From: a virus
IMG/VR virus record: IMGVR_UViG_3300045988_039638
Reading direction: 5' to 3' (one strand)
Length of the DNA stretch: 32,357 nucleotides
Positions 1 through 32,357 of this stretch are shown here, piece after piece (the stretch's first letter is position 1; each line of letters starts with the position of its first letter). The position numbers were made by a program, and so were the translations under genes. The notes below the pieces were generated by a model. That model was not told where the DNA came from. It was given only the letters and a program-made list of their open reading frames with translations, and did no database searches.

Positions 1-55
1 CATCGCTTTTATATCATAGTCAAGCCATAGTATGAATATTCTTAGACAAAAAGAA
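1..55. repeat. 55-bp terminal direct repeat, copy 1 (circular-contig overlap)
   Basis: nt 1-55 are identical to nt 32303-32357. This implies a closed circle or terminal redundancy, with 32302 bp of unique sequence. An exact 55-nt overlap is typical of a k=55 de Bruijn assembly of a circular molecule. Confidence 0.9.
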
Positions 56-183
56 AAAACCCTCCGATATTGTGAAGGGTTCTTTCTTTAAGAAATATGA
101 AAGGAGACAAACATTAATGAAAAAAACAAACAAAAACAAAATGTAAGTTGCTATACTAAGAAGTGCTTCTTTCTTCTTAGTAC
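48..183 (-). ncRNA. Candidate small RNA, unit 1 (promoter, 5' hairpin, CU-rich core, terminator)
   Basis: Minus-strand promoter TAGACA (218..213), 17-nt spacer, TGA-TAATAT (-10 at 195..190). A perfect 10-bp stem TACTAAGAAG/CTTCTTAGTA (154-163/173-182) sits at the predicted 5' end. The core contains UCUCCUUUC. The terminator stem is 58-65/74-81, followed on the minus strand by UUUUUUCUUUUU. One stem position is a G-U wobble in minus-sense RNA but a C-A mismatch in plus-sense RNA. Confidence 0.55.
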
Positions 184-408
184 GTATATATATTATCATA
201 CATTTCAGCATTTGTCTAGCGTTTTGCTACAATCTCAGTAAAAAAATGTCTCTAAAGGTTTGTTTGTTCTAGTTTGTTCATTAAAGATAGCAGTATATAG
301 CAATATTTAAGCAATACATCCAATCTAAGAGACTTTTATATATAATTGGTGTTATTCTTCATGTTTAGCGTTTTATCTCTCTATTGCCTTATTTTAAGCA
401 TTTAAGGT

Positions 409-520
409 AAAAGAAAAAAGAGACACAAATGAATGTATCTCTTCTTCCAATGAAATTCAATCTAAGAGAGGAAATCTAATGAATGAAATTACATAGTAGT
501 AAGCGTTACTTCTTACTACA
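409..520 (-). ncRNA. Candidate small RNA, unit 2
   Basis: Minus-strand promoter TTGACA (555..550), 17-nt spacer, TGA-TAATGT (-10 at 532..527). The 5' stem is GTAGTAAG/CTTACTAC (496-503/512-519). The core contains UUUCCUCUCUUAG. The terminator is a 9-bp stem AGAGAUACA/UGUGUCUCU (419-427/434-442) that includes a G-U possible only in minus sense, followed by UUUUUCUUUU. Confidence 0.6.
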
Positions 521-578
521 TGTCTAACATTATCACTAAATAGGCATATTGTCAATACTTTTGTTAGTTCATCAGTAT

Positions 579-675
579 AAAAAAGAAAGATGCATCTTTT
601 GATACACCCTTCTAAAAATATGGAGATAGATTATGAAATGAATTGAAATAGTAGTAAGTCTGCTCTTCTTACTAC
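579..675 (-). ncRNA. Candidate small RNA, unit 3
   Basis: Minus-strand promoter TTGACT (710..705), 17-nt spacer, TGA-TAATAT (-10 at 687..682). The 5' stem GTAGTAAG/CTTACTAC (651-658/668-675) is identical to that of unit 2. The core is CAUAAUCUAUCUCC. The terminator is a weak palindromic hairpin AAAGATGCATCTTT (586-599) followed by CUUUUUU. Confidence 0.5.
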
Positions 676-790
676 ATCTATATATTATCACTATTTATAT
701 TTAAAGTCAAGACTTTTTTTATTTTCTCTGTATAATTCTTTTACTGCACTATATATTACATCTCTATATATTAGATATAATATATATATA

Positions 791-854
791 CTTCTTTATT
801 TTATTTCTTATTCTTTCTTTGGTTCTTTCTTTCTTCTTCTTTATTTTATTTCTT
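791..854. repeat. Polypyrimidine/polypurine tract bounded by a 19-bp perfect direct repeat
   Basis: cttctttattttatttctt occurs at 791-809 and again at 836-854. The interval between them is almost entirely C/T on the plus strand. Immediately upstream, CTATATATTA occurs three times (678-687, 749-758, 764-773). Confidence 0.85.
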
Positions 855-929
855 CGTGATTGATTAGTTTAACTATTTAAGTGAATAACTAAATCTTCAA
901 ACAGTTCAGAGACAAGAGGAGAAATAGAA

Positions 930-971
930 GGAATGATATTCCCTTAGCGCTAACTAAAAAAATATCATCCC
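930..971. repeat. Nested palindrome (potential cruciform or RNA hairpin)
   Basis: GGAATGATATT (930-940) pairs with AATATCATCCC (961-971) with one mismatch. These arms enclose the perfect palindrome TTAGCGCTAA (944-953). Confidence 0.8.
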
Positions 972-1391
972 TTTAGAATAACAGTTCGTCAACTGTCGGA
1001 GTTTCTAAAGGTTGAGCATGATTGCTACTATTTCAAGTAACACGTGCGCTATTCTCACTTAGAGAAGTGTCTTTTCCGTCCAACACATCAAGCACGATTC
1101 CTCATCGGAAATCCTCCCAAACTCTTTATTTTATTGTGGTTTGTGTTTGTATAAAAACCACTCAAGTACTTATGCTTCGCTCACAGCATAAGTGCTGTAG
1201 ATTTATTGCGTCGGCTCTACACACCTACCTGTATTATTTTATAACGTGTCTAAAAGGTGCATATTCACACGCTTAGATTAAATATCTAAGATAGCCATGT
1301 AAGACTATTCATTTGGAGTAACTTTTGTTAACTCGCTATTCAATTGTCAAAGTCATTATACATCATTGGTTGGAGTATTGCAAGCATTAAT

Positions 1392-1421
1392 TTATTATCA
1401 GATGTAAACAGGAGTAGTCAA
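1392..1421 (-). promoter_or_regulatory. Fourth promoter of the small-RNA promoter family, facing the ORF-free segment
   Basis: Minus strand: TTGACT (1421..1416), 18-nt spacer, TGA-TAATAA (1397..1392). It has the same TGATAATA -10 context as units 1-3. No ORF lies downstream. Confidence 0.4.
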
Positions 1422-1603
1422 AGCGTGTATATATGCCTATAAGCCATATACCGCAAATATAAGCGTTGTTTATATTGAATGGGTGCAGTTTATCATATTT
1501 ATAAGAAAGTCGCTCATATGCTTAAATATTTGGCTTTTTATCAAGATGGCAAATATTGACTGTTAGTGGTTAAAAAATAACATCATAAATTTTCATTATA
1601 TGC

Positions 1604-1631
1604 TTGACATAGGAACATTATCGAATATAAT
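1604..1631 (+). promoter_or_regulatory. Plus-strand promoter module P1
   Basis: TTGACA (1604-1609), 16-nt spacer, TATAAT (1626-1631). It is followed by the shared initial transcribed sequence TATAAGTGTAATAAGAAAG and the leader GGGTGACACCCTAGGAGG. Confidence 0.75.
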
Positions 1632-1674
1632 TATAAGTGTAATAAGAAAGGGTGACACCCTAGGAGGAAAGATT

Positions 1675-1788
1675 ATGGATAACGAAGAACTATTACATAC
1701 TATGACTTTTAATGAAGTAAATGAAATCAGAAAAGGATTACAAGACAAGTTGGAAATGGCTTTATTAAAAAAACAACTTGGGAATTAG
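1675..1788 (+). CDS. Small hypothetical protein (37 aa), probably the 5' part of a frame-split gene
   Basis: ATG at 1675 lies 7 nt after TAGGAGG (1661-1667), in the same frame as track ORF 1600..1788. The ORF ends at TAG 1786-1788, just after an A7 run (1767-1773). Confidence 0.6.
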   Translation: MDNEELLHTMTFNEVNEIRKGLQDKLEMALLKKQLGN

Positions 1789-1984
1789 AATCGCTAAGGT
1801 CGAATACACAGACGAAAGACTATGGATTAATCAGAGATATCCTGTTGAATTTAAATTGAAAATAATGAGCATTGTTTGGTTAGATACGTGTGCTATTAGA
1901 AGACTTACGAACGTACTAAACGAAATGAGAGCAGAACTTGAAAACGTAAATAACGAATATAAAGGCTATACATTTATTTTCTAA
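1778..1984 (+). CDS. Hypothetical protein lacking its own RBS; the frame is open from 1769 and is +1 relative to 1675..1788
   Basis: This is track ORF 1778..1984 with a TTG start. No Shine-Dalgarno sequence precedes the TTG or any internal ATG. The reading frame opens inside the A7 run. A terminator follows directly. Confidence 0.5.
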   Translation: MGIRIAKVEYTDERLWINQRYPVEFKLKIMSIVWLDTCAIRRLTNVLNEMRAELENVNNEYKGYTFIF

Positions 1985-1986
1985 TC

Positions 1987-2017
1987 GGAGTGATAATTCA
2001 CTCCTTTTTATTTTTTT
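1987..2017 (+). terminator. Rho-independent terminator
   Basis: GGAGTG (1987-1992), loop ataatt, CACTCC (1999-2004), followed by TTTTTATTTTTTT. Confidence 0.8.
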
Positions 2018-2037
2018 AAATTATTTTAATGATATTA

Positions 2038-2065
2038 TTGACATATATGTAATACCGAGTATAAT
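2038..2065 (+). promoter_or_regulatory. Plus-strand promoter module P2
   Basis: TTGACA (2038-2043), 16-nt spacer, TATAAT (2060-2065). The 39-nt string ttgacatatatgtaataccgagtataattataagtgtaa is identical to the one in P3 at 2601-2639. The leader is GGGTAAACCCCTAAAGGAG. Confidence 0.8.
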
Positions 2066-2110
2066 TATAAGTGTAAAAGGAAAAGGGTAAACCCCTAAAG
2101 GAGATTAATT

Positions 2111-2317
2111 ATGAAAGCAAATAATTATTTTAAGAAGTATGGTGTTATTTATGGAGTATCAGAGAAGTTCAGTTTTGGAAGATTAACAGGCTATGCAAGA
2201 AAATTTGATAACATGGAAGAAGCCGAGAAGTGGCTACATACTGAAGAAGCAGACTTTAGAACAAGAAGCCTTGTTTCAAAAACATATGCTAAAAGATATG
2301 GATTAAGAGAAGACTAA
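2111..2317 (+). CDS. Hypothetical small protein (68 aa)
   Basis: Track ORF. The RBS AAAGGAG lies 8 nt upstream of the ATG, and the gene has its own promoter, P2. Confidence 0.75.
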   Translation: MKANNYFKKYGVIYGVSEKFSFGRLTGYARKFDNMEEAEKWLHTEEADFRTRSLVSKTYAKRYGLRED

Positions 2318-2324
2318 AAAAAGT

Positions 2325-2375
2325 TTCTACATATGCTATATGCCTATTGACAACATATATCATATGTAGAACAAT
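2325..2375 (+). promoter_or_regulatory. 11-bp perfect inverted repeat bracketing a TTGACA box upstream of the RHH-like gene
   Basis: TTCTACATATG (2325-2335) pairs with CATATGTAGAA (2361-2371). TTGACA is at 2347-2352, and only a weak -10 (AACAAT, 2370-2375) sits 17 nt downstream. Confidence 0.5.
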
Positions 2376-2402
2376 TAATATAGAAAATAGGAGGAATAAA
2401 AA

Positions 2403-2582
2403 ATGGTATCAGAAAGTCAGAAAAGAAGCGCTGAGAAATATCAGAAAGCAAATACAAAACTAATCAGCGTACGAGTAAATAAGAAGTTAGAACCCAAGTT
2501 ACTTGAATGGCTCGAAAGAAAGCCTTCAATGGGAGGTTATATGCTCGACTTGGTAAGAGCAGACATGGAAAGAAATAAATAA
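2403..2582 (+). CDS. 59-aa ribbon-helix-helix-like (Arc/CopG-type) DNA-binding protein candidate
   Basis: This ORF is not in the track because it is under 60 aa. The RBS is TAGGAGGAAT and the ATG is at 2403. The translation is MVSESQKRSAEKYQKANTKLISVRVNKKLEPKLLEWLERKPSMGGYMLDLVRADMERNK. It shows a short beta-strand (LISVRV) followed by two helices, which is the RHH layout. Confidence 0.55.
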   Translation: MVSESQKRSAEKYQKANTKLISVRVNKKLEPKLLEWLERKPSMGGYMLDLVRADMERNK

Positions 2583-2600
2583 AAAAATTAATGAATATGC

Positions 2601-2628
2601 TTGACATATATGTAATACCGAGTATAAT
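2601..2628 (+). promoter_or_regulatory. Plus-strand promoter module P3
   Basis: TTGACA (2601-2606), 16-nt spacer, TATAAT (2623-2628). It is identical to P2 over 39 nt. Confidence 0.8.
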
Positions 2629-2678
2629 TATAAGTGTAATAAGAAAGATAAAACAAAAGAAAAAGGAGATTGAAAGTT

Positions 2679-2973
2679 ATGAAAAAAGATTAGTTTTGCA
2701 AGCGTTTCAGAATTTAGTATTAATGAGGAATTAGATGTTGGTGTTTATAACATCTGTGGTGCTGATTACATAATTCTTGGTGGCGAATTTACTGCTAGTG
2801 GTGTAAGAAACTACCTTCGCCCTTTAGATAAGGTGAAAGAAAATTGGAAAGACTTAGAACATTATTCAAGAACTAGACGTGATGTTGAGTTCTACATGGA
2901 TAATAAATCAATGCTAAAATGTGAAAAAGTCATTAGAGATTTAAGACATGAAATTGAGCATCAAAAGTGGTAG
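2679..2973 (+). CDS. Frame-interrupted small gene (about 97 aa if a +1 shift occurs in the A6 run after the ATG)
   Basis: AAAGGAGATTGAAAGTT is followed by ATG (2679), then AAAAAA (2682-2687). The ATG frame stops after 4 codons (TAG 2691-2693). The +1 frame is open from 2683 to TAG 2971-2973 and reads KKISFASVSEFSINEELDVGVYNICGADYIILGGEF...HEIEHQKW. That frame has no start codon of its own near its 5' end. Confidence 0.55.
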
Positions 2974-2992
2974 GTGATATTAGATATAAAAT

Positions 2993-3026
2993 AAAAAAAA
3001 GGGGTTGGCAAAATACCAACCCTTTT
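2993..3026. terminator. Bidirectional rho-independent terminator between the convergent plus cassette and the lysis genes
   Basis: An A8 run, then GGGTTGG (3002-3008), loop caaaata, CCAACCC (3016-3022), then TTTT. Confidence 0.85.
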
Positions 3027-3033
3027 ATAATGC

Positions 3034-3930
3034 TTATTTTTTTGTACCTCGTAAAAGCCAATCCCAAGTGTTTCGACCTACAATTCCATCTTGCTTCAAG
3101 TTTCTATTCTTCTGAAATACTTTCACGGCTTTTTTAGTGCCACCACCAAAAATTCCGTCGGTTGACAAGTGGAATCCTACGCTATTAAGTCGTTCTTGAA
3201 TAAGTCTAGTAATGTTGCCTCTCGCTCCTTTTTTAACAGTTACACAAGCATCAAGCGTTCTTGGACCTCGTAAGCCGTCAACCGCAAGTCCTTTATGGAA
3301 CTGAACGTTCAATTCTTTTTGTAAACGTGCTACCCATTCATCATAGCCTTTTTTATGCGCTGTAGGCGCTGTTTCATGGTGTACAGGTGTATTAGTATTA
3401 GGAATCTGCGCTGTGCCACCGTTTAAACGGCTTTTAAAAGCATTCCATGTTTTATCATTTAAAAGGTCGTTACAATTAGGACATAACTTGCCGTTTACGT
3501 CATAATGCCTGATAACTCTATCAAGTGGAATATTGTATTTCTGCATTAAAAGTCTGCCTAGTGTGATAGCGTTCTTGAGCGTTGCTTCTGAGATTGAAAC
3601 AACACCGTTCTTTACTGTGTCACACATCTCAATACTAATAGAATTAGAGTTAGTACAGATTTTATATAGCGGATGATGTTTAGACTGACATTTGCCACCA
3701 ACTGAATAAGCCACATAATCATCATATACAGACTGTGTTACGCTGTCATCATCCACAAAATAATGAGCACTTGCCTTTACAATATTGTTATGAAAATAGT
3801 TAGCGTTGCTTTCATCATGGTCTCCATCGTTTGAGGTGTAATGATAAACTAAATATTTAATATTACCTGTATTTCTTTTTTTGCCATAGTTTGCTCTATT
3901 TGCAATATTTGTTTTAAAGATATATCCCAT
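3034..3930 (-). CDS. Endolysin: N-acetylmuramoyl-L-alanine amidase (Amidase_2/PGRP-type) with C-terminal PG_binding_1-like repeats
   Basis: 298 aa. The N-terminal pattern is YLVYHYTSNDGD...AHYFVDD...SIEMCD...RHYDVNGKLCP. The C-terminus carries two repeats, LAVDGLRGPRTLDA and LSTDGIFGGGTKKAVKVFQ...LKQDGIVGRNTW. It is the last gene of the late operon. Confidence 0.85.
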   Translation of the reverse strand: MGYIFKTNIANRANYGKKRNTGNIKYLVYHYTSNDGDHDESNANYFHNNIVKASAHYFVDDDSVTQSVYDDYVAYSVGGKCQSKHHPLYKICTNSNSISIEMCDTVKNGVVSISEATLKNAITLGRLLMQKYNIPLDRVIRHYDVNGKLCPNCNDLLNDKTWNAFKSRLNGGTAQIPNTNTPVHHETAPTAHKKGYDEWVARLQKELNVQFHKGLAVDGLRGPRTLDACVTVKKGARGNITRLIQERLNSVGFHLSTDGIFGGGTKKAVKVFQKNRNLKQDGIVGRNTWDWLLRGTKK

Positions 3931-3943
3931 ATAATAAAACCTC

Positions 3944-4159: not shown

Positions 4160-4429
4160 CTAAACACCTTCTTTTTCTTCGCCTTCAACGAATCTCGTAA
4201 AAGCCTGATGTAATCCTGTAGAAGCAAGTCCCATCAATGCACCATAAACAATCGAATTGACAGATACACCACTAACAATAGCGTTCAGCACTGCTCCAAC
4301 AACCGCTAGAATTGTTGGAATATACTTATTTGGCACTTTATCAAAAGATGTTTTAATAATGTATCCTACAACAAGACATGCGACCATGACGACCAAAACA
4401 AAATACTGTGTTAACTGAGAAAAATCCAT
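4160..4429 (-). CDS. Holin (phi LC3/SPP1-like class, multi-TM)
   Basis: 89 aa with 2-3 hydrophobic helices, an NKYIP motif and an acidic C-terminus. A strong RBS (AGGAGG) precedes it, and it lies upstream of the endolysin. Confidence 0.65.
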   Translation of the reverse strand: MDFSQLTQYFVLVVMVACLVVGYIIKTSFDKVPNKYIPTILAVVGAVLNAIVSGVSVNSIVYGALMGLASTGLHQAFTRFVEGEEKEGV

Positions 4430-4431
4430 AA

Positions 4432-4563
4432 TTATTTACCTCCTAAAAAGCCTTCTCGACCTCTTTTAATCAATTCCTGTTTAACTTTGTCACGAATACG
4501 TAAAGGCACATCATCAATAGTTTTTAAACCTTTTTCAATCAAATCAGCATAAATCTTATCCAT
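4432..4563 (-). CDS. 43-aa XkdX/CD1375-like small protein
   Basis: This ORF is not in the track. The translation is MDKIYADLIEKGLKTIDDVPLRIRDKVKQELIKRGREGFLGGK. The ATG at 4563 overlaps the stop of the upstream gene. Small proteins of this type typically sit between the fibre and holin genes in Firmicute phages. Confidence 0.5.
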   Translation of the reverse strand: MDKIYADLIEKGLKTIDDVPLRIRDKVKQELIKRGREGFLGGK

Positions 4564-4894
4564 TGTTATTCATCCCCTCGTAAATGTCACATAAAGCCAT
4601 CTGTAACTTAGTTACATTGCTTTCTGTTTCTGTAAGTCTTTCTTCAATTGTTGGTTCCTGTACAGGTTCAGTTTGCTCATATTTAGCCCATTCATAGTGT
4701 TCATAAATATGAGTATCGTCCTCTGTGTAAGTGGTTTTTACAATGTATGAGCCGTCTGCAACATTAGCATCATGTACTAACTCTTTATAGCCTAACTGCT
4801 TTAATACCTCATTATTATTGATGTATGTAGTGCCATCAATAACAACACTCTTAGGTGCTCTAGTTAGGATGTTGTCCTGTAATTTATATAGCAT
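4556..4894 (-). CDS. Hypothetical protein at the fibre/lysis junction (XkdW-like position)
   Basis: Track ORF of 112 aa with RBS AAAGAGGTGA. The function is assigned from position only. Confidence 0.6.
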   Translation of the reverse strand: MLYKLQDNILTRAPKSVVIDGTTYINNNEVLKQLGYKELVHDANVADGSYIVKTTYTEDDTHIYEHYEWAKYEQTEPVQEPTIEERLTETESNVTKLQMALCDIYEGMNNNG

Positions 4895-8966: not shown

Positions 8967-10946
8967 CTATACCCCCTTTAGTTTAAGTATTAGTTCTCTG
9001 TTTGCGTTCCTTGTCTGTCTTGATACTTCGCTAGGGTCTAACTGCTTAGGACTTTGTATATTCAATGTCTGATATACGTTGCCGTTATTTGCCATATTTT
9101 GACCATATGAGCCACGTTTTAAGATTGTTATGTCTTCATTATCCATCTGCGTTTTAACTATCTGTATTGCCCCAAAACCCACAGGAACGCTCTTGATAGG
9201 ATTGAATCCGTTTATAACTTCATCATTGAACTCATTAATATCTTTTTTAACATTCGAAAGTGAATCTATGATACCTAATCCGATGCCTTGACCAATATAA
9301 ATACCGACCGTGTCACGCATTATTTTTGATGGAGAGTGAATACCGAATGCACTTTTAAACTTATTTACAACACCTTTTGCAAAACCTCCAACTTTTTTAA
9401 CAAGCCATCCAGCCATGCTCGAAATACCATTCCAAATACCTTTTACAATATTAGAACCGATAGAAAGCATTTTTGAAGGTAGTGTTCTGATTGCAGTTTC
9501 GATAGCACTCGCAACCTTTAACATTGCAGTCCTACCAAGATGTCCTAAGCCGCTGATAGTTCCACTTAGACTGTACATTGCCGAGCGTCCTATGTTCATG
9601 AGTGCAGAAGGTAGGTTTGTAATACCACCTTTAATTGAAGTTAGGATTCCCTTGCCTACTGTTTTCAATGCTCCGAACATTGATTTAATGCCATTCCCAA
9701 TGAACTTTATTGCATTAGAGCCTAACTGTAACCAGTTAAACGCTGACCAAACATTGACAATAGCCATGATAATTTTTGGAATATTGGCAATTAATGTAGG
9801 AATTGCTTGTATTAATCCAAGCGCTAATTTGCCAATTAGTTTTACACCGCAAATTAGAACAGTTGGAGCGTTGTCATTTATGATATTTGCAAATGTACTG
9901 ATGATCGTAGGAATCTTTGCAATCATGACAGGAATTGCAGATACAATGCCATCTGCCAACTTGTTCAACAAATCAAAACCTGTCTTGATGAAATGTGGCG
10001 CTTGTGAAGCAATGCTGCTTGCGAATTTTTGAACTGCATCAAGGATTCCTGGCATGTTATTAAATGCGCTTGTTAGAACTGTAATTGCTGACTTTGCAAT
10101 ATTTCCGAGCATTGGAATAAGGTTGTTGCCAACAAACACACCTAAAGAACTAATCAGATTTTTAAAGGTCTGCGTAACATTCTGACCTGTTGACATACTA
10201 CCTAAAAAATCACTCCAAGAAGCCTTTAACATTCCAAAAGAACCGCTAAAAGTTTTAGTTGCTTCTTCTTGTGTTGTATTAGTTACTTTTAAATTTTCTT
10301 GAATAGCGTGGATTGCACTATAGACATCACTTAAGTTATTAATATCATAGTGAACACCTGTTAGTTTCTGAGCGTCTGAAAGCAGTCTCTGCATTTCTGT
10401 TTTTGTGCCACCATAGCCTAATTTTAGATTGTCAAGCATTGTGTAGTTCTGTTTTGCGAAACCTTGATAAGCATTCTGTATGTCACTTATATTTGTTCCA
10501 AACTTATTAGAGTTATCTGACATATCTCTAATAGCAGTATTAGCAATCTCAACGGCTTTCGCTGTATCTCCACTACAAGAACGGACTAAAGCACTAGCGA
10601 ATGAGGTTGCTTGCTCCATGTATTCGTTAGCACTAACACCACTATCTCTAAAAGCCGTACTTGCGTATTTCTTGAGTCTGTCGGCACTCTTGCCAAATAG
10701 TGTTTCAACACCTCCGATAGACTGTTGCAGTTTTCCGCCTTCGGTTAGAGACTGTCCAACAATCTTTCCAAGTGTTCCTGTTGCTAAAACTTTTGTAAGT
10801 GTTTTTATTACTCCTCCACCAAGTAAAGAGCCTCCGCGTATGCCACCGTCACTCATTGGCTTTTCGATTACATCTTTAATAGAAGACGTAATACCTTTTG
10901 CAGAAGGCACAATTTGTATATACGCTTTTCCGAGGTCTGTTGCCAT
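8967..10946 (-). CDS. Tail tape measure protein
   Basis: 659 aa and the largest gene. It has a G/A/I/L-rich hydrophobic central region and lies directly after the G/GT chaperone pair. Confidence 0.85.
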   Translation of the reverse strand: MATDLGKAYIQIVPSAKGITSSIKDVIEKPMSDGGIRGGSLLGGGVIKTLTKVLATGTLGKIVGQSLTEGGKLQQSIGGVETLFGKSADRLKKYASTAFRDSGVSANEYMEQATSFASALVRSCSGDTAKAVEIANTAIRDMSDNSNKFGTNISDIQNAYQGFAKQNYTMLDNLKLGYGGTKTEMQRLLSDAQKLTGVHYDINNLSDVYSAIHAIQENLKVTNTTQEEATKTFSGSFGMLKASWSDFLGSMSTGQNVTQTFKNLISSLGVFVGNNLIPMLGNIAKSAITVLTSAFNNMPGILDAVQKFASSIASQAPHFIKTGFDLLNKLADGIVSAIPVMIAKIPTIISTFANIINDNAPTVLICGVKLIGKLALGLIQAIPTLIANIPKIIMAIVNVWSAFNWLQLGSNAIKFIGNGIKSMFGALKTVGKGILTSIKGGITNLPSALMNIGRSAMYSLSGTISGLGHLGRTAMLKVASAIETAIRTLPSKMLSIGSNIVKGIWNGISSMAGWLVKKVGGFAKGVVNKFKSAFGIHSPSKIMRDTVGIYIGQGIGLGIIDSLSNVKKDINEFNDEVINGFNPIKSVPVGFGAIQIVKTQMDNEDITILKRGSYGQNMANNGNVYQTLNIQSPKQLDPSEVSRQTRNANRELILKLKGV

Positions 10947-22967: not shown

Positions 22968-23454
22968 CTACTGTCTTATGGATAACTATATTATTGTCAA
23001 TAACCCTACAATTTTTCAAAATGTAATTGATTGAATAAGGTTCTTTGTCTTCAGATTTAACAAATTGAAATAATTCGTTAAATACGTTTAAATGGTCGGT
23101 GCTACCATAACAGTTCCAGACATTGTTTAATTTATCTGGCTTATTATGATATACACCTAAGAAACCGCTTTTATCTCTTGCGATATACATATATTTTGCA
23201 TTATCTGCTAGGTATTTAAGAATTTTATATTCAAGTTCTGTAAGAATGATAGGCTTTTCGTACTCGGATAAGAGCCAATTATAGCGTCCATTGTTGCAAA
23301 ATTTATAGCCATTAAAGGCACAATTTTCGCATTTTACATCTATGCAATCGCAAAACGTCATATTTTGTTTATCAAAAGCGGTATACCATAGTTTGCCCGC
23401 ATCATTTAATGATTTTAGTTCATCTTTATATTTTTCTGCGTTAATCACTTTCAA
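22960..23454 (-). CDS. Hypothetical protein, paralog B (Cys-rich N-terminus plus shared C-terminal domain)
   Basis: 164 aa from a TTG start; GTG at 23448 is the better-spaced start. The C-terminal ~85 aa align with the C-terminus of 23441..23950. Confidence 0.7.
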   Translation of the reverse strand: MKVINAEKYKDELKSLNDAGKLWYTAFDKQNMTFCDCIDVKCENCAFNGYKFCNNGRYNWLLSEYEKPIILTELEYKILKYLADNAKYMYIARDKSGFLGVYHNKPDKLNNVWNCYGSTDHLNVFNELFQFVKSEDKEPYSINYILKNCRVIDNNIVIHKTVDE

Positions 23455-23950
23455 TCACCTCACAATTATTTAATAGTTCTTCGATATTCATAGGTTCTTT
23501 ATCTCTCCATGAAATAAAATGGAATAAATCATCAAAGCCTTTTTGACGTCTAGCGTGTCCATACTCAGTTGACCATACATCCTCATTTTTTGATGGCTTG
23601 TCTCTATAAGTATATAACGCTCCGTCTTTATCTATTGCAATATAATTATATTTTTTGTCCCAATATTTGAGTAACTCATATTCTAATCTAGTTAGAATAA
23701 AAGACGCTGACGGCTCTTCATATACGACAGGAACGGCAATATCTTCAACAACTACTATACTTTCTTCTACTCCAACATTATATCCTTTATCATAATCACA
23801 TATTTCATGACCTTTTAGGCTTTCAAGCGAATTAATAATTATTTGTTTTGTATCGTTAAATACTTCTACTAGTTCGTTGTAATTCTTTAATAAACTAGTA
23901 TATGCATACTTTTTTCTTTCATATTTTTCTTTATAACTTGTTATTTTCAT
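23441..23950 (-). CDS. Hypothetical protein, paralog A
   Basis: 169 aa. The shared pattern is LT.LEY..LKY...YIA.DK.G.L..Y..KP.K...VW...F..LF.F....DKEP..I...L.NC.VI. Confidence 0.7.
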   Translation of the reverse strand: MKITSYKEKYERKKYAYTSLLKNYNELVEVFNDTKQIIINSLESLKGHEICDYDKGYNVGVEESIVVVEDIAVPVVYEEPSASFILTRLEYELLKYWDKKYNYIAIDKDGALYTYRDKPSKNEDVWSTEYGHARRQKGFDDLFHFISWRDKEPMNIEELLNNCEVIESD

Positions 23951-32199: not shown

Positions 32200-32233
32200 A
32201 ATATATCCTCCTATGTGCTTTTATATTTAAATG

Positions 32234-32277
32234 GGCATTTCTTGCCTTGTAGGCATTTCTGCCTTGTAGGCATTTCT
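32234..32277. repeat. Three direct repeats (iteron- or operator-like) in the early leader
   Basis: GGCATTTCT occurs at 32234, 32252 and 32269, giving periods of 18 and 17 bp. The first two units extend to GGCATTTCT(T)GCCTTGTA. The array is flanked by the inverted repeat AAATGGG (32229-32235) / CCCATTT (32280-32286). Confidence 0.8.
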
Positions 32278-32296: not shown

Positions 32297-32325
32297 ATAC
32301 TACATCGCTTTTATATCATAGTCAA
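32297..32325 (-). promoter_or_regulatory. Early promoter of the replication operon
   Basis: Minus strand: TTGACT (32325..32320), 17-nt spacer, TAGTAT (32302..32297). The repeats lie between it and the AGGAGG RBS. Confidence 0.6.
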
Positions 32326-32357
32326 GCCATAGTATGAATATTCTTAGACAAAAAGAA
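32303..32357. repeat. 55-bp terminal direct repeat, copy 2
   Basis: Identical to nt 1-55. Confidence 0.9.

Follow-up and report, generated by a model that had tools for sequence, protein, structure and literature searches.

The cia-dependent small RNAs (csRNAs, ccnA-E) of Streptococcus form a set of paralogues about 50-200 nt long. Each has a strong promoter and a terminator to itself, and two stem-loops flank an unpaired region complementary to the Shine-Dalgarno (SD) sequence and the AUG codon; they were proposed to act as blockers of translation initiation (PMC3091779). Here we describe a locus of similar design in an uncultured phage represented by IMG/VR record IMGVR_UViG_3300045988_039638, a human gut metagenome contig (ERZ916558) whose whole stretch of 32,357 nucleotides we call the window. 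Three units on its minus strand, beside the early replication promoter, each consist of a promoter, a 5' stem-loop, a CU-rich core and an intrinsic terminator. Like csRNAs, they have two stem-loops around an unpaired anti-SD/anti-AUG region and occur as several paralogues. Unlike csRNAs, none of the 29 units from 11 genomes on which our conservation counts rest possesses the CiaR box TTTAAG-N5-TTTAAG (the -35 is TTGACW or TAGACA) or the nonamer [A/C]UCCUAAA[A/C] after the first stem-loop, which is shared by almost every csRNA. Moreover, the units are phage-borne and stand in tandem, and they have neither sequence similarity to csRNAs nor an Rfam match. The units are built like csRNAs and are not members of that family. 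An earlier note on this DNA knew of no described family with such a layout. As far as Rfam is concerned this holds, but the streptococcal csRNAs follow the same design, even though the units fail their two sequence hallmarks.

Short RNAs repressing translation by pairing over the ribosome-binding site (RBS) are also known from phages, namely c4 of P1 and P7 and sar of P22; P1 is a plasmid prophage. However, c4 is processed from the transcript of its own target and sar is a cis-antisense RNA, whereas our units have promoters and terminators of their own and are antisense to no gene. In Firmicutes, small RNAs of the RsaE/RoxS type, with C-rich or UCCC motifs, pair an unpaired pyrimidine-rich seed with G-rich SD sequences independently of Hfq. 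The seed of the units is instead UCUCC(UUUC) together with an anti-AUG, it does not lie in hairpin loops, and neither homology nor an Rfam match links it to that type. Very few small RNAs from Gram-positive phages are known; a 2025 review of phage small RNAs, which lists c4, has SprY as its lone Gram-positive example (PMC12197685).

The three units adjoin the replication genes on their upstream side and occupy positions 710-578 (unit 3), 555-409 (unit 2) and 218-48 (unit 1). Their elements are the following.

Positions 682..710, minus strand: promoter of unit 3, found by scanner; -35 TTGACT at 710-705, 17-nt spacer, extended -10 TGATAATAT at 690-682.
Positions 651..675, minus strand: 5' stem-loop of unit 3, in RNA GUAGUAAG/CUUACUAC, from DNA arms GTAGTAAG/CTTACTAC at 675-668/658-651; 9-nt loop.
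Positions 614..650, minus strand: core of unit 3, CAUAAUCUAUCUCC, with anti-AUG CAU at 635-633 and anti-SD UCUCC at 626-622; unpaired in the minimum-energy fold.
Positions 578..613, minus strand: intrinsic terminator of unit 3, a 13-bp stem at 613-584 that includes G-U pairs, then a U-run.
Positions 527..555, minus strand: promoter of unit 2, read directly; TTGACA at 555-550, 17-nt spacer, TGATAATGT at 535-527.
Positions 496..519, minus strand: 5' stem-loop of unit 2, GUAGUAAG/CUUACUAC, that is, the arms of unit 3, at 519-512/503-496; 8-nt loop.
Positions 449..495, minus strand: core of unit 2, with anti-AUG CAU at 485-483 and at 481-479 and anti-SD UCCUCUC at 472-466.
Positions 409..448, minus strand: intrinsic terminator of unit 2, a 15-bp stem at 448-413, then a U-run.
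Positions 190..218, minus strand: promoter of unit 1, found by scanner with its TG extension; TAGACA at 218-213, 17-nt spacer, TGATAATAT at 198-190.
Positions 153..183, minus strand: 5' stem-loop of unit 1, in RNA GUACUAAGAAG/CUUCUUAGUAU, from DNA arms GTACTAAGAAG/CTTCTTAGTAT at 183-173/163-153; 9-nt loop.
Positions 90..152, minus strand: core of unit 1, with a U-rich tract, anti-AUG CAU at 119-117 and anti-SD GUCUCCUUUC at 108-99.
Positions 48..89, minus strand: intrinsic terminator of unit 1, with a GC core CCCUUC/GGAGGG at 79-74/65-60 plus A/U pairs and a U-run at 59-48.

The units are recognisable as paralogues, and their predicted RNAs measure about 98, 111 and 136 nt. All three hairpins begin at the predicted +1, 6-7 nt past the -10 hexamer (7 nt in unit 3). 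The earlier note had described this succession of promoter, +1 hairpin, CU-rich core and terminator, and we could read every element at its place. Terminator-like sites found by scanner number 9 in positions 1-3000, against 0.8 +/- 1.0 in shuffled sequences. The minus-sense RNAs of the three units have folding energies of -24.0, -32.4 and -34.0 kcal/mol (z = -4.0, -4.8 and -4.6), whereas their plus-sense images reach -13.5, -21.6 and -26.4 kcal/mol and are thus 8-11 kcal/mol worse. This bears out the argument, already made from G-U pairs which become C-A mismatches in the opposite sense, for minus-strand transcription. Because the G-U pairs are valid in minus-sense RNA alone, the minus strand should be the transcribed one.

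Relatives were gathered without using RNA features, by starting from DnaB and from homologues of the neighbouring Rep protein and then taking their contigs. Eleven distinct genomes with the non-coding region resulted, namely the window and ten further gut-metagenome phage genomes (L123, L124, L163, L166, L168, L169, L170, L174, L176 and L178), and the layout with two or three units upstream of the rep-dnaB operon recurs in all ten. Unit 1 was found in 11/11 genomes and unit 3 is carried by eight; L163 and L174 have two units each, with a unit 3/unit 2 hybrid. In L170 the non-coding region is 88% identical to that of the window, with Rep just 54% identical, and L176 has kept all three units although its Rep is the most divergent one (39% identity). 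DnaB relatives at 62-67% identity, where upstream sequence is retained, have an integrase together with a switch region of the usual kind, and the units have no similarity in any of the DnaB relatives at this identity. No DNA similarity was detected to GenBank phages, in near and distant search modes, or to PLSDB plasmids, and a protein-pattern scan of IMG/VR for Rep gave no match. A first hairpin pattern was unspecific, with more than 120 chance matches; refined patterns retrieved from IMG/VR merely two known relatives and one unrelated promoter-and-hairpin mRNA leader.

Within the promoters, information content amounts to 1.5-1.6 bits per position over the -35 and -10 hexamers and drops to 0.65 over the 17-nt spacer; the TG extension has been retained. 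The same is seen among unit 3 orthologues, where hexamers and TG persist while the spacer drifts, and the -35 TAGACA of unit 1 is invariant in 11/11 orthologues. These promoters are of the same class as the early replication promoter (P_rep) and other strong promoters of this genome. Such kinship would be expected if the units were cis-acting promoter-terminator modules that activate or insulate the origin and the early promoter, or provide read-through, with the RNAs as by-products. The location of the units directly upstream of P_rep and the iterons, in the same orientation in 11/11 genomes, and a unit number that varies between 2 and 3 via recombination between units also agree with such modules. 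Nevertheless, their terminators are strong (13-16 bp plus U-run), and the selection visible on RNA features, that is, compensatory stems, G-U intermediates and an invariant core, would be needless for a role of the DNA. We regard this explanation as improbable.

The stems argue for selection at the level of RNA in most detail. In the alignment of the eight basal pairs of the 5' stem, 94.8% of cells are paired and 4/8 pairs are changed on both sides; 0/500 shuffles reach the observed value, and slid controls are 19-52% paired. One pair of the unit 1 stem passes from A-U in the window through G-U in L124 to G-C in L178. Unit 2 of L169 has GCAG/CUGC in place of the GUAG/CUAC of others, and a pair that is C-G in unit 1 is G-C in units 2 and 3. 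One-sided changes lead to G-U at five pair positions, and cells that fail to pair number 5/96, one of them the U/C mismatch of L176 unit 3. The terminators evolve in the same manner: RNAalifold finds changes on both sides in 5/14 pairs of unit 1, 5/9 of unit 2 and 5/10 of unit 3, and in L169 and L176 the terminator stem of unit 1 has another sequence and the same shape. The comparison of orthologous stems which the earlier note had advised therefore yields compensatory changes in both the 5' hairpin and the terminators.

The same alignments bear on the alternative which that note had left standing, that the inverted repeats at +1 (8-11 bp by our reading) are protein operators. They would then be DNA sites for a dimeric repressor, with everything else in the units serving as spacer. 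Perfect palindromic arms do overlap the +1 of three promoters, their sequence is conserved, and a conserved small protein (2403-2582) from the plus-strand gene cassette to the right, which has no Pfam match, could conceivably be a regulator. But the hairpin loop ranges from 4 nt (unit 1 of L123) to 34 nt (unit 1 of L166) and the arms from 5 to 12 bp, and it is this arm-to-arm distance of 4-34 nt that disfavours operators, since dimeric binding demands fixed half-site spacing. Changes that pass via G-U would appear in DNA as half-site mismatches instead of symmetric sites, and the conserved cores and covarying terminators would be left unexplained. Operators are in our opinion very unlikely.

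What the 5' stem-loop may do instead is suggested by mRNA leaders. Stem-loops at the 5' terminus stabilise RNA against 5'-end-dependent decay in the ompA and papA leaders of E. coli and the aprE leader of B. subtilis (references in PMC3997798). Those stabilisers are parts of mRNA leaders, whereas in the units the stem-loop heads a non-coding RNA. A different phage contig of IMG/VR, L183 (IMGVR_UViG_3300045988_127620, minus strand), has TTGACA-N17-TAATAT with its -35 at base 1619 of the reverse-complemented locus, a +1 hairpin GUGCUAAGA/CUUAGCA and then an mRNA with its own SD sequence; the same 5' hairpin module thus appears to serve a coding transcript there.

The units themselves have no coding potential. 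Open reading frames (ORFs) that start from the SD-like image of the core in plus sense comprise 0-52 codons across relatives and share only the dipeptide MK, so that no ORF is conserved; conserved plus-strand ORFs, which would have counted against the proposal of RNA genes, were not encountered. The statement that nothing longer than 8 codons is encoded in plus sense needs correction, as there are SD-bearing ORFs of up to 9 codons (unit 1) and 14 codons (unit 2), none of them conserved. A 24-codon ORF starting with GTG at 72..146 is not conserved either. The scan against Rfam 15 that had been recommended matched no family in the whole window at gathering thresholds and, at E <= 10, returned merely sub-threshold matches to terminator hairpins.

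These results also bear on antisense partners of the plus strand, either type I antitoxins or countertranscripts (ctRNAs) controlling the replication gene. For them one can quote that the plus-sense images of the cores resemble SD + AUG + AAA, that some ORFs of relatives (23-52 codons) have hydrophobic stretches, that several relatives possess a nearby Rep_3 initiator on the opposite strand, and that there are weak Rfam matches to ctRNA_p42d. Yet a type I system is characterised by a conserved small toxin ORF, hydrophobic as a rule, that overlaps the RNA or adjoins it on the opposite strand, which the ORFs here, 2-14 codons long in the window and unconserved elsewhere, do not provide. The only plus-strand promoter directed at the units is a weak one (9/12 match, 43-71) on the outer margin of unit 1, and the inverted terminators would stop plus-strand transcripts. 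A copy-control ctRNA is antisense to the leader of the initiator mRNA, whereas the units point the same way as rep, upstream of the rep promoter, and stay clear of Rep_3 (in L170, Rep_3 spans 3103-3942 and the units about 4200-4880), which is absent from the window. The matches to ctRNA_p42d consist of terminator hairpins alone and score 16-18 bits against a threshold of 50. Of all explanations considered, we find this one the hardest to believe.

The layout in 11 genomes, the compensation in stems, the unconserved plus-strand ORFs and the lack of an Rfam match together support the earlier proposal of three paralogous minus-strand small-RNA genes. That the units are real small-RNA genes we consider highly probable.

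The CU-rich core behaves differently from the stems that surround it. CUCC or CCUC occurs in 28/29 units (shuffles: mean 7.6, maximum 16), and CAU precedes the anti-SD by 4-11 nt in 23/29 (mean 2.2, maximum 8). The anti-SD motif is UCUCC, often UCUCCUUUC, and in most units the core motif is unpaired or just partly paired in the minimum-energy fold. In unit 1, GUCUCCUUUC is invariant in 11/11 orthologues. Unit 2 cores contain UUUCCUC(UC) or, in more divergent orthologues, AUCUCCUUUC. The motif of unit 3 across genomes is UCUCCAUA; the core CAUAAUCUAUCUCC is identical in 5/8 carriers (the window, L123, L124, L168 and L170), and L166, L169 and L176 have UCUCCAUAAUUC. It is sequence rather than structure that is conserved, even where the flanking stems are rewritten. 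A core that stays constant while adjoining terminator stems covary points to a partner outside the RNA. As to its nature, UCUCCUUUC agrees at 8/9 positions with the 3' tail of Firmicute 16S rRNA, CCUCCUUUC. As a near-copy of this tail, the core looks like a generic translation initiation region (TIR) read in antisense.

An invariant core between stems might alternatively belong to conditional leaders, in which a factor bound to the CU core or the 5' hairpin sets the state of the terminator and thereby read-through toward rep. Promoter, structured leader and terminator do stand in series before an operon, and CU-rich cores could in principle pair with purine-rich terminator arms. An antiterminator should however track the covarying terminator arms, which the invariant core does not; minimum-energy folds strongly favour the terminators, what follows each terminator is another full promoter and not a gene, and no cis-regulatory Rfam family is matched. 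Attenuation is, in our judgement, quite unlikely.

A further possibility takes the RNAs as real and gives them the role of decoys. As RNA anti-CRISPRs they would imitate the repeat or guide scaffold of a host CRISPR system; as sponges they would soak up an RNA-binding protein with affinity for the conserved 5' hairpin or the CU motif. Known RNA anti-CRISPRs (rAcrIIA1 and the solitary repeat units called Racr) resemble the units in that they are small RNAs from phage intergenic regions, have a promoter of their own and contain a 5' duplex; RNAs of this build inhibit Cas9, and rAcrIIA1 has about 111 nt. The paralogous copies are multiple, and the 5' arm GUA(G/C)UAAGA is kept in sequence as well as in structure. 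Racrs are nevertheless defined by homology to the host CRISPR repeat or tracrRNA, and the units match neither CRISPR-DR nor any other Rfam family, even at E <= 10. Their loops of 4-34 nt and stems of 5-12 bp do not look like a protein-fitted repeat mimic, and the 5' arm motif occurs also behind promoters of protein-coding genes. Finally, the best-kept unpaired element is the anti-SD/anti-AUG image, a feature of the units and not of Racrs, for which a repeat mimic has no need. We find decoys improbable as well. The readings as type I antitoxins, ctRNAs, operators and attenuators were all considered and rejected on the points given above, and each of the rivals fits the covariation together with the conserved core less well than the explanation we favour.

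We suggest that the units form a new family of trans-acting small RNAs which block translation initiation, with a probability of roughly 0.55. Host RNA polymerase with sigma-A would transcribe them from their strong extended -10 promoters immediately upon infection. The stem-loop at the extreme 5' end most likely shields each RNA from decay that depends on the 5' end, and the intrinsic terminator would close it. Between the two stems, a segment would be exposed that has CAU first and, 4-11 nt downstream of it, UCUCC or the near-copy of the 16S rRNA tail. With this segment the RNAs would most likely pair in trans with the SD and start-codon region of mRNAs and stop ribosome loading. The best candidates within the phage would be the leaders of the small-gene cassette, for unit 3, and host mRNAs are equally possible as targets. 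The pairing mechanism as such we give about an even chance, if anything slightly less. If our assumptions are true, uncultured gut phages possess a multi-copy conserved family of small RNAs, and its clear and testable design (5' stabiliser hairpin, exposed anti-SD/anti-AUG seed, terminator) offers a handle on translation control at the RNA level during infection.

Candidate targets were scored by comparing each core, windowed, with 54 phage TIRs; this replaced unrestricted RNAduplex, which produced unrealistic long-loop duplexes. For unit 3, gene 2111 ranks 1/54 (-18.2 kcal/mol, z = -2.0), gene 1675 is 4th and the mini-ORF at 2679 is 7th. The resemblance to TIRs pointed out by the earlier note is real, with GGAGATAGATTATG in unit 3 against GGAGATTAATTATG of gene 2111 and AGATTATG in common with gene 1675. 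In four genomes with the same core, a cassette TIR is first (L123, L124, L168) or second (L170) for unit 3, and with the window included the z-scores for cassette TIRs lie at about -2 to -2.8. The orthologue of gene 2111 in L168 could form 9 + 8 bp with unit 3 across a single bulge, and in a partial window locus gene 2111 ranks 2/31. The idea that the RNAs pair with RBSs and start codons of the oppositely oriented cassette is thus weakly supported, through unit 3 at z = -2.0, and gains nothing from units 1 and 2. For unit 3, pairing with cassette leaders is suggestive; it is not decisive because it comes from related genomes with small margins, and exact complements are scattered elsewhere. 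Two more specific matches were discarded. Unit 1 is complementary over 13 nt to the TIR of gene 23441-23950, by means of a CAU that just 4/11 orthologues possess. Unit 3 is complementary over 23 nt to the long RNA upstream (643-665 vs 1014-1036), which is not kept in L168.

Several points speak against translational blocking by these RNAs or lower the force of the evidence for it. No target is an outlier, as the best score of unit 3 has z = -2.0, and units 1 and 2 favour no cassette TIR among the 54 of the phage. Exact complements of 9-13 nt are scattered in the manner that AT-rich sequence predicts. A core descended from a cassette leader would give the same ranking for unit 3. The seed is generic and would fit most strong SD sequences, which leaves specificity unexplained. 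The counts of core motifs are not independent and are inflated by the shared ancestry of the units, and the alignment of the 5' stem was anchored on its two arms and is hence biased toward structure. The 5' arm GTA(G/C)TAAGA also follows other phage promoters, where no complementary arm is present; part of its conservation may be an effect of promoter and initial transcript, given that the motif stands behind promoters of coding genes. Lastly, the terminator hairpin of unit 3 in L124 (8950-8979) is inverted relative to 584-613 of the window and has A-C mismatches on the sense strand. It matches the reverse complement of the window sequence at 26/30 positions and the direct sequence at 19/30, which is an inversion in place.

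As a complete phage genome, the window has identical ends, an exact overlap of 55 nt (1-55 = 32303-32357), which give it a circular map and mark the contig as a circularly closed assembly. Nearly all genes lie on the minus strand, among them those for an HTH_36 replication initiator, DnaB, RecE, RecT, portal, large terminase, tape measure and endolysin. No credible ORF was found on either strand in positions 1-1500. To the left of the units on the circle come P_rep, the iterons and then rep and dnaB; to the right of the non-coding stretch lies the plus-strand small-gene cassette (1600-2973). The promoters of this neighbourhood are as follows.

Positions 23-18 and, across the circle, 32302-32297, minus strand: P_rep, outside the units, with -35 TTGACT and -10 TAGTAT, respectively.
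Positions 1604-1631, 2038-2065 and 2601-2628, plus strand: three cassette promoters, each a perfect 12/12 match to the consensus.

All relatives have a promoter of the P_rep class (TTGACT-N17-TAGTAT or TAATAT) ahead of rep. Between P_rep and the RBS of rep, at 32233-32277 of the minus strand, stand about 2.5 copies of the direct repeat AGAAATGCCTACAAGGCA, which are probably the origin or an operator for Rep. Iterons at the matching position differ in each relative, with up to 7 copies (L174), and track the divergent Rep protein. In L123 (about 9545-9600), a deletion fuses the rep promoter into the rep gene, with loss of iterons, RBS and about 25 codons. The leaders behind the cassette promoters are paralogous, TATAAGTGTAA(T/A)AAG(A/G)AAAG, and this stretch, the first to be transcribed, is similar to the 5' arm of the hairpins in the small RNAs. 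The third of these promoters drives merely a 4-codon ORF, ATGAAAAAAGATTAG at 2679, which is probably a decayed gene. Neither Pfam nor PHROGs suggested a function for the genes of the cassette or the early small genes.

The host might be a member of Erysipelotrichaceae, a guess from protein matches of about 30%; a host search with two patterns against GTDB genomes gave no match. In three relatives a plasmid-type Rep_3 initiator adjoins the non-coding region on the opposite strand (L166 2605-3444, L169 1983-2786, L170 3103-3942), its nearest plasmid matches (about 28-31%) being from Amedibacterium and Spiroplasma plasmids. No integrase was seen in the unit-bearing lineage, and the window has neither Rep_3 nor integrase. 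The Rep_3 initiators and the missing integrase suggest that these are phage-plasmids.

Directly upstream of the units lies a further candidate RNA.

Positions 895-1345, minus strand: candidate large structured RNA of about 450 nt, with promoter TTGCAA-N17-TATAAT at 1383-1355.

It is conserved at 71-89% in L124, L168, L169 and L176 and absent from L170, L123 and L166, which keep the small units. RNAalifold predicts 116 pairs, 27 of them changed on both sides; 94.8% of cells are paired, a value reached by 0/500 shuffles, with slid controls at 38-48%. The fold of -124.4 kcal/mol (z = -4.6) compares with -103.2 (z = -2.8) for the other strand, and no Rfam family is matched. With this RNA, the locus would become a protein-free regulatory region in a lineage without recognisable repressor or integrase, and the non-coding stretch of 1.5 kb occupies the place where temperate cousins hold integrase and repressor. 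One might imagine that this RNA-only island, with the large RNA and three mimics of the 16S tail, is an immunity or lifestyle switch like P4 CI or P1 c4, or that it reprograms host translation globally by masking SD sequences; we consider this a long shot.

Two minor elements complete the region. Between units 2 and 1, at about 230-345 of the minus strand, there is a conserved box TATAYAAAAGTC(T/G)CTTAGAATGG, with CCTTAGAGAC and a T-run about 100 nt further on. The box is kept in 10/10 genomes with an alignable spacer (L178 lacks the sequence upstream of unit 1), and L123, L169 and L174 have it in duplicate. It may represent a fourth transcript, the remnant of a promoter copy or a site in the DNA. 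At positions 790-870, which separate unit 3 from the large RNA, the plus strand carries three copies of a pyrimidine-rich direct repeat (CTTCTTTATTTTATTTCTT...).

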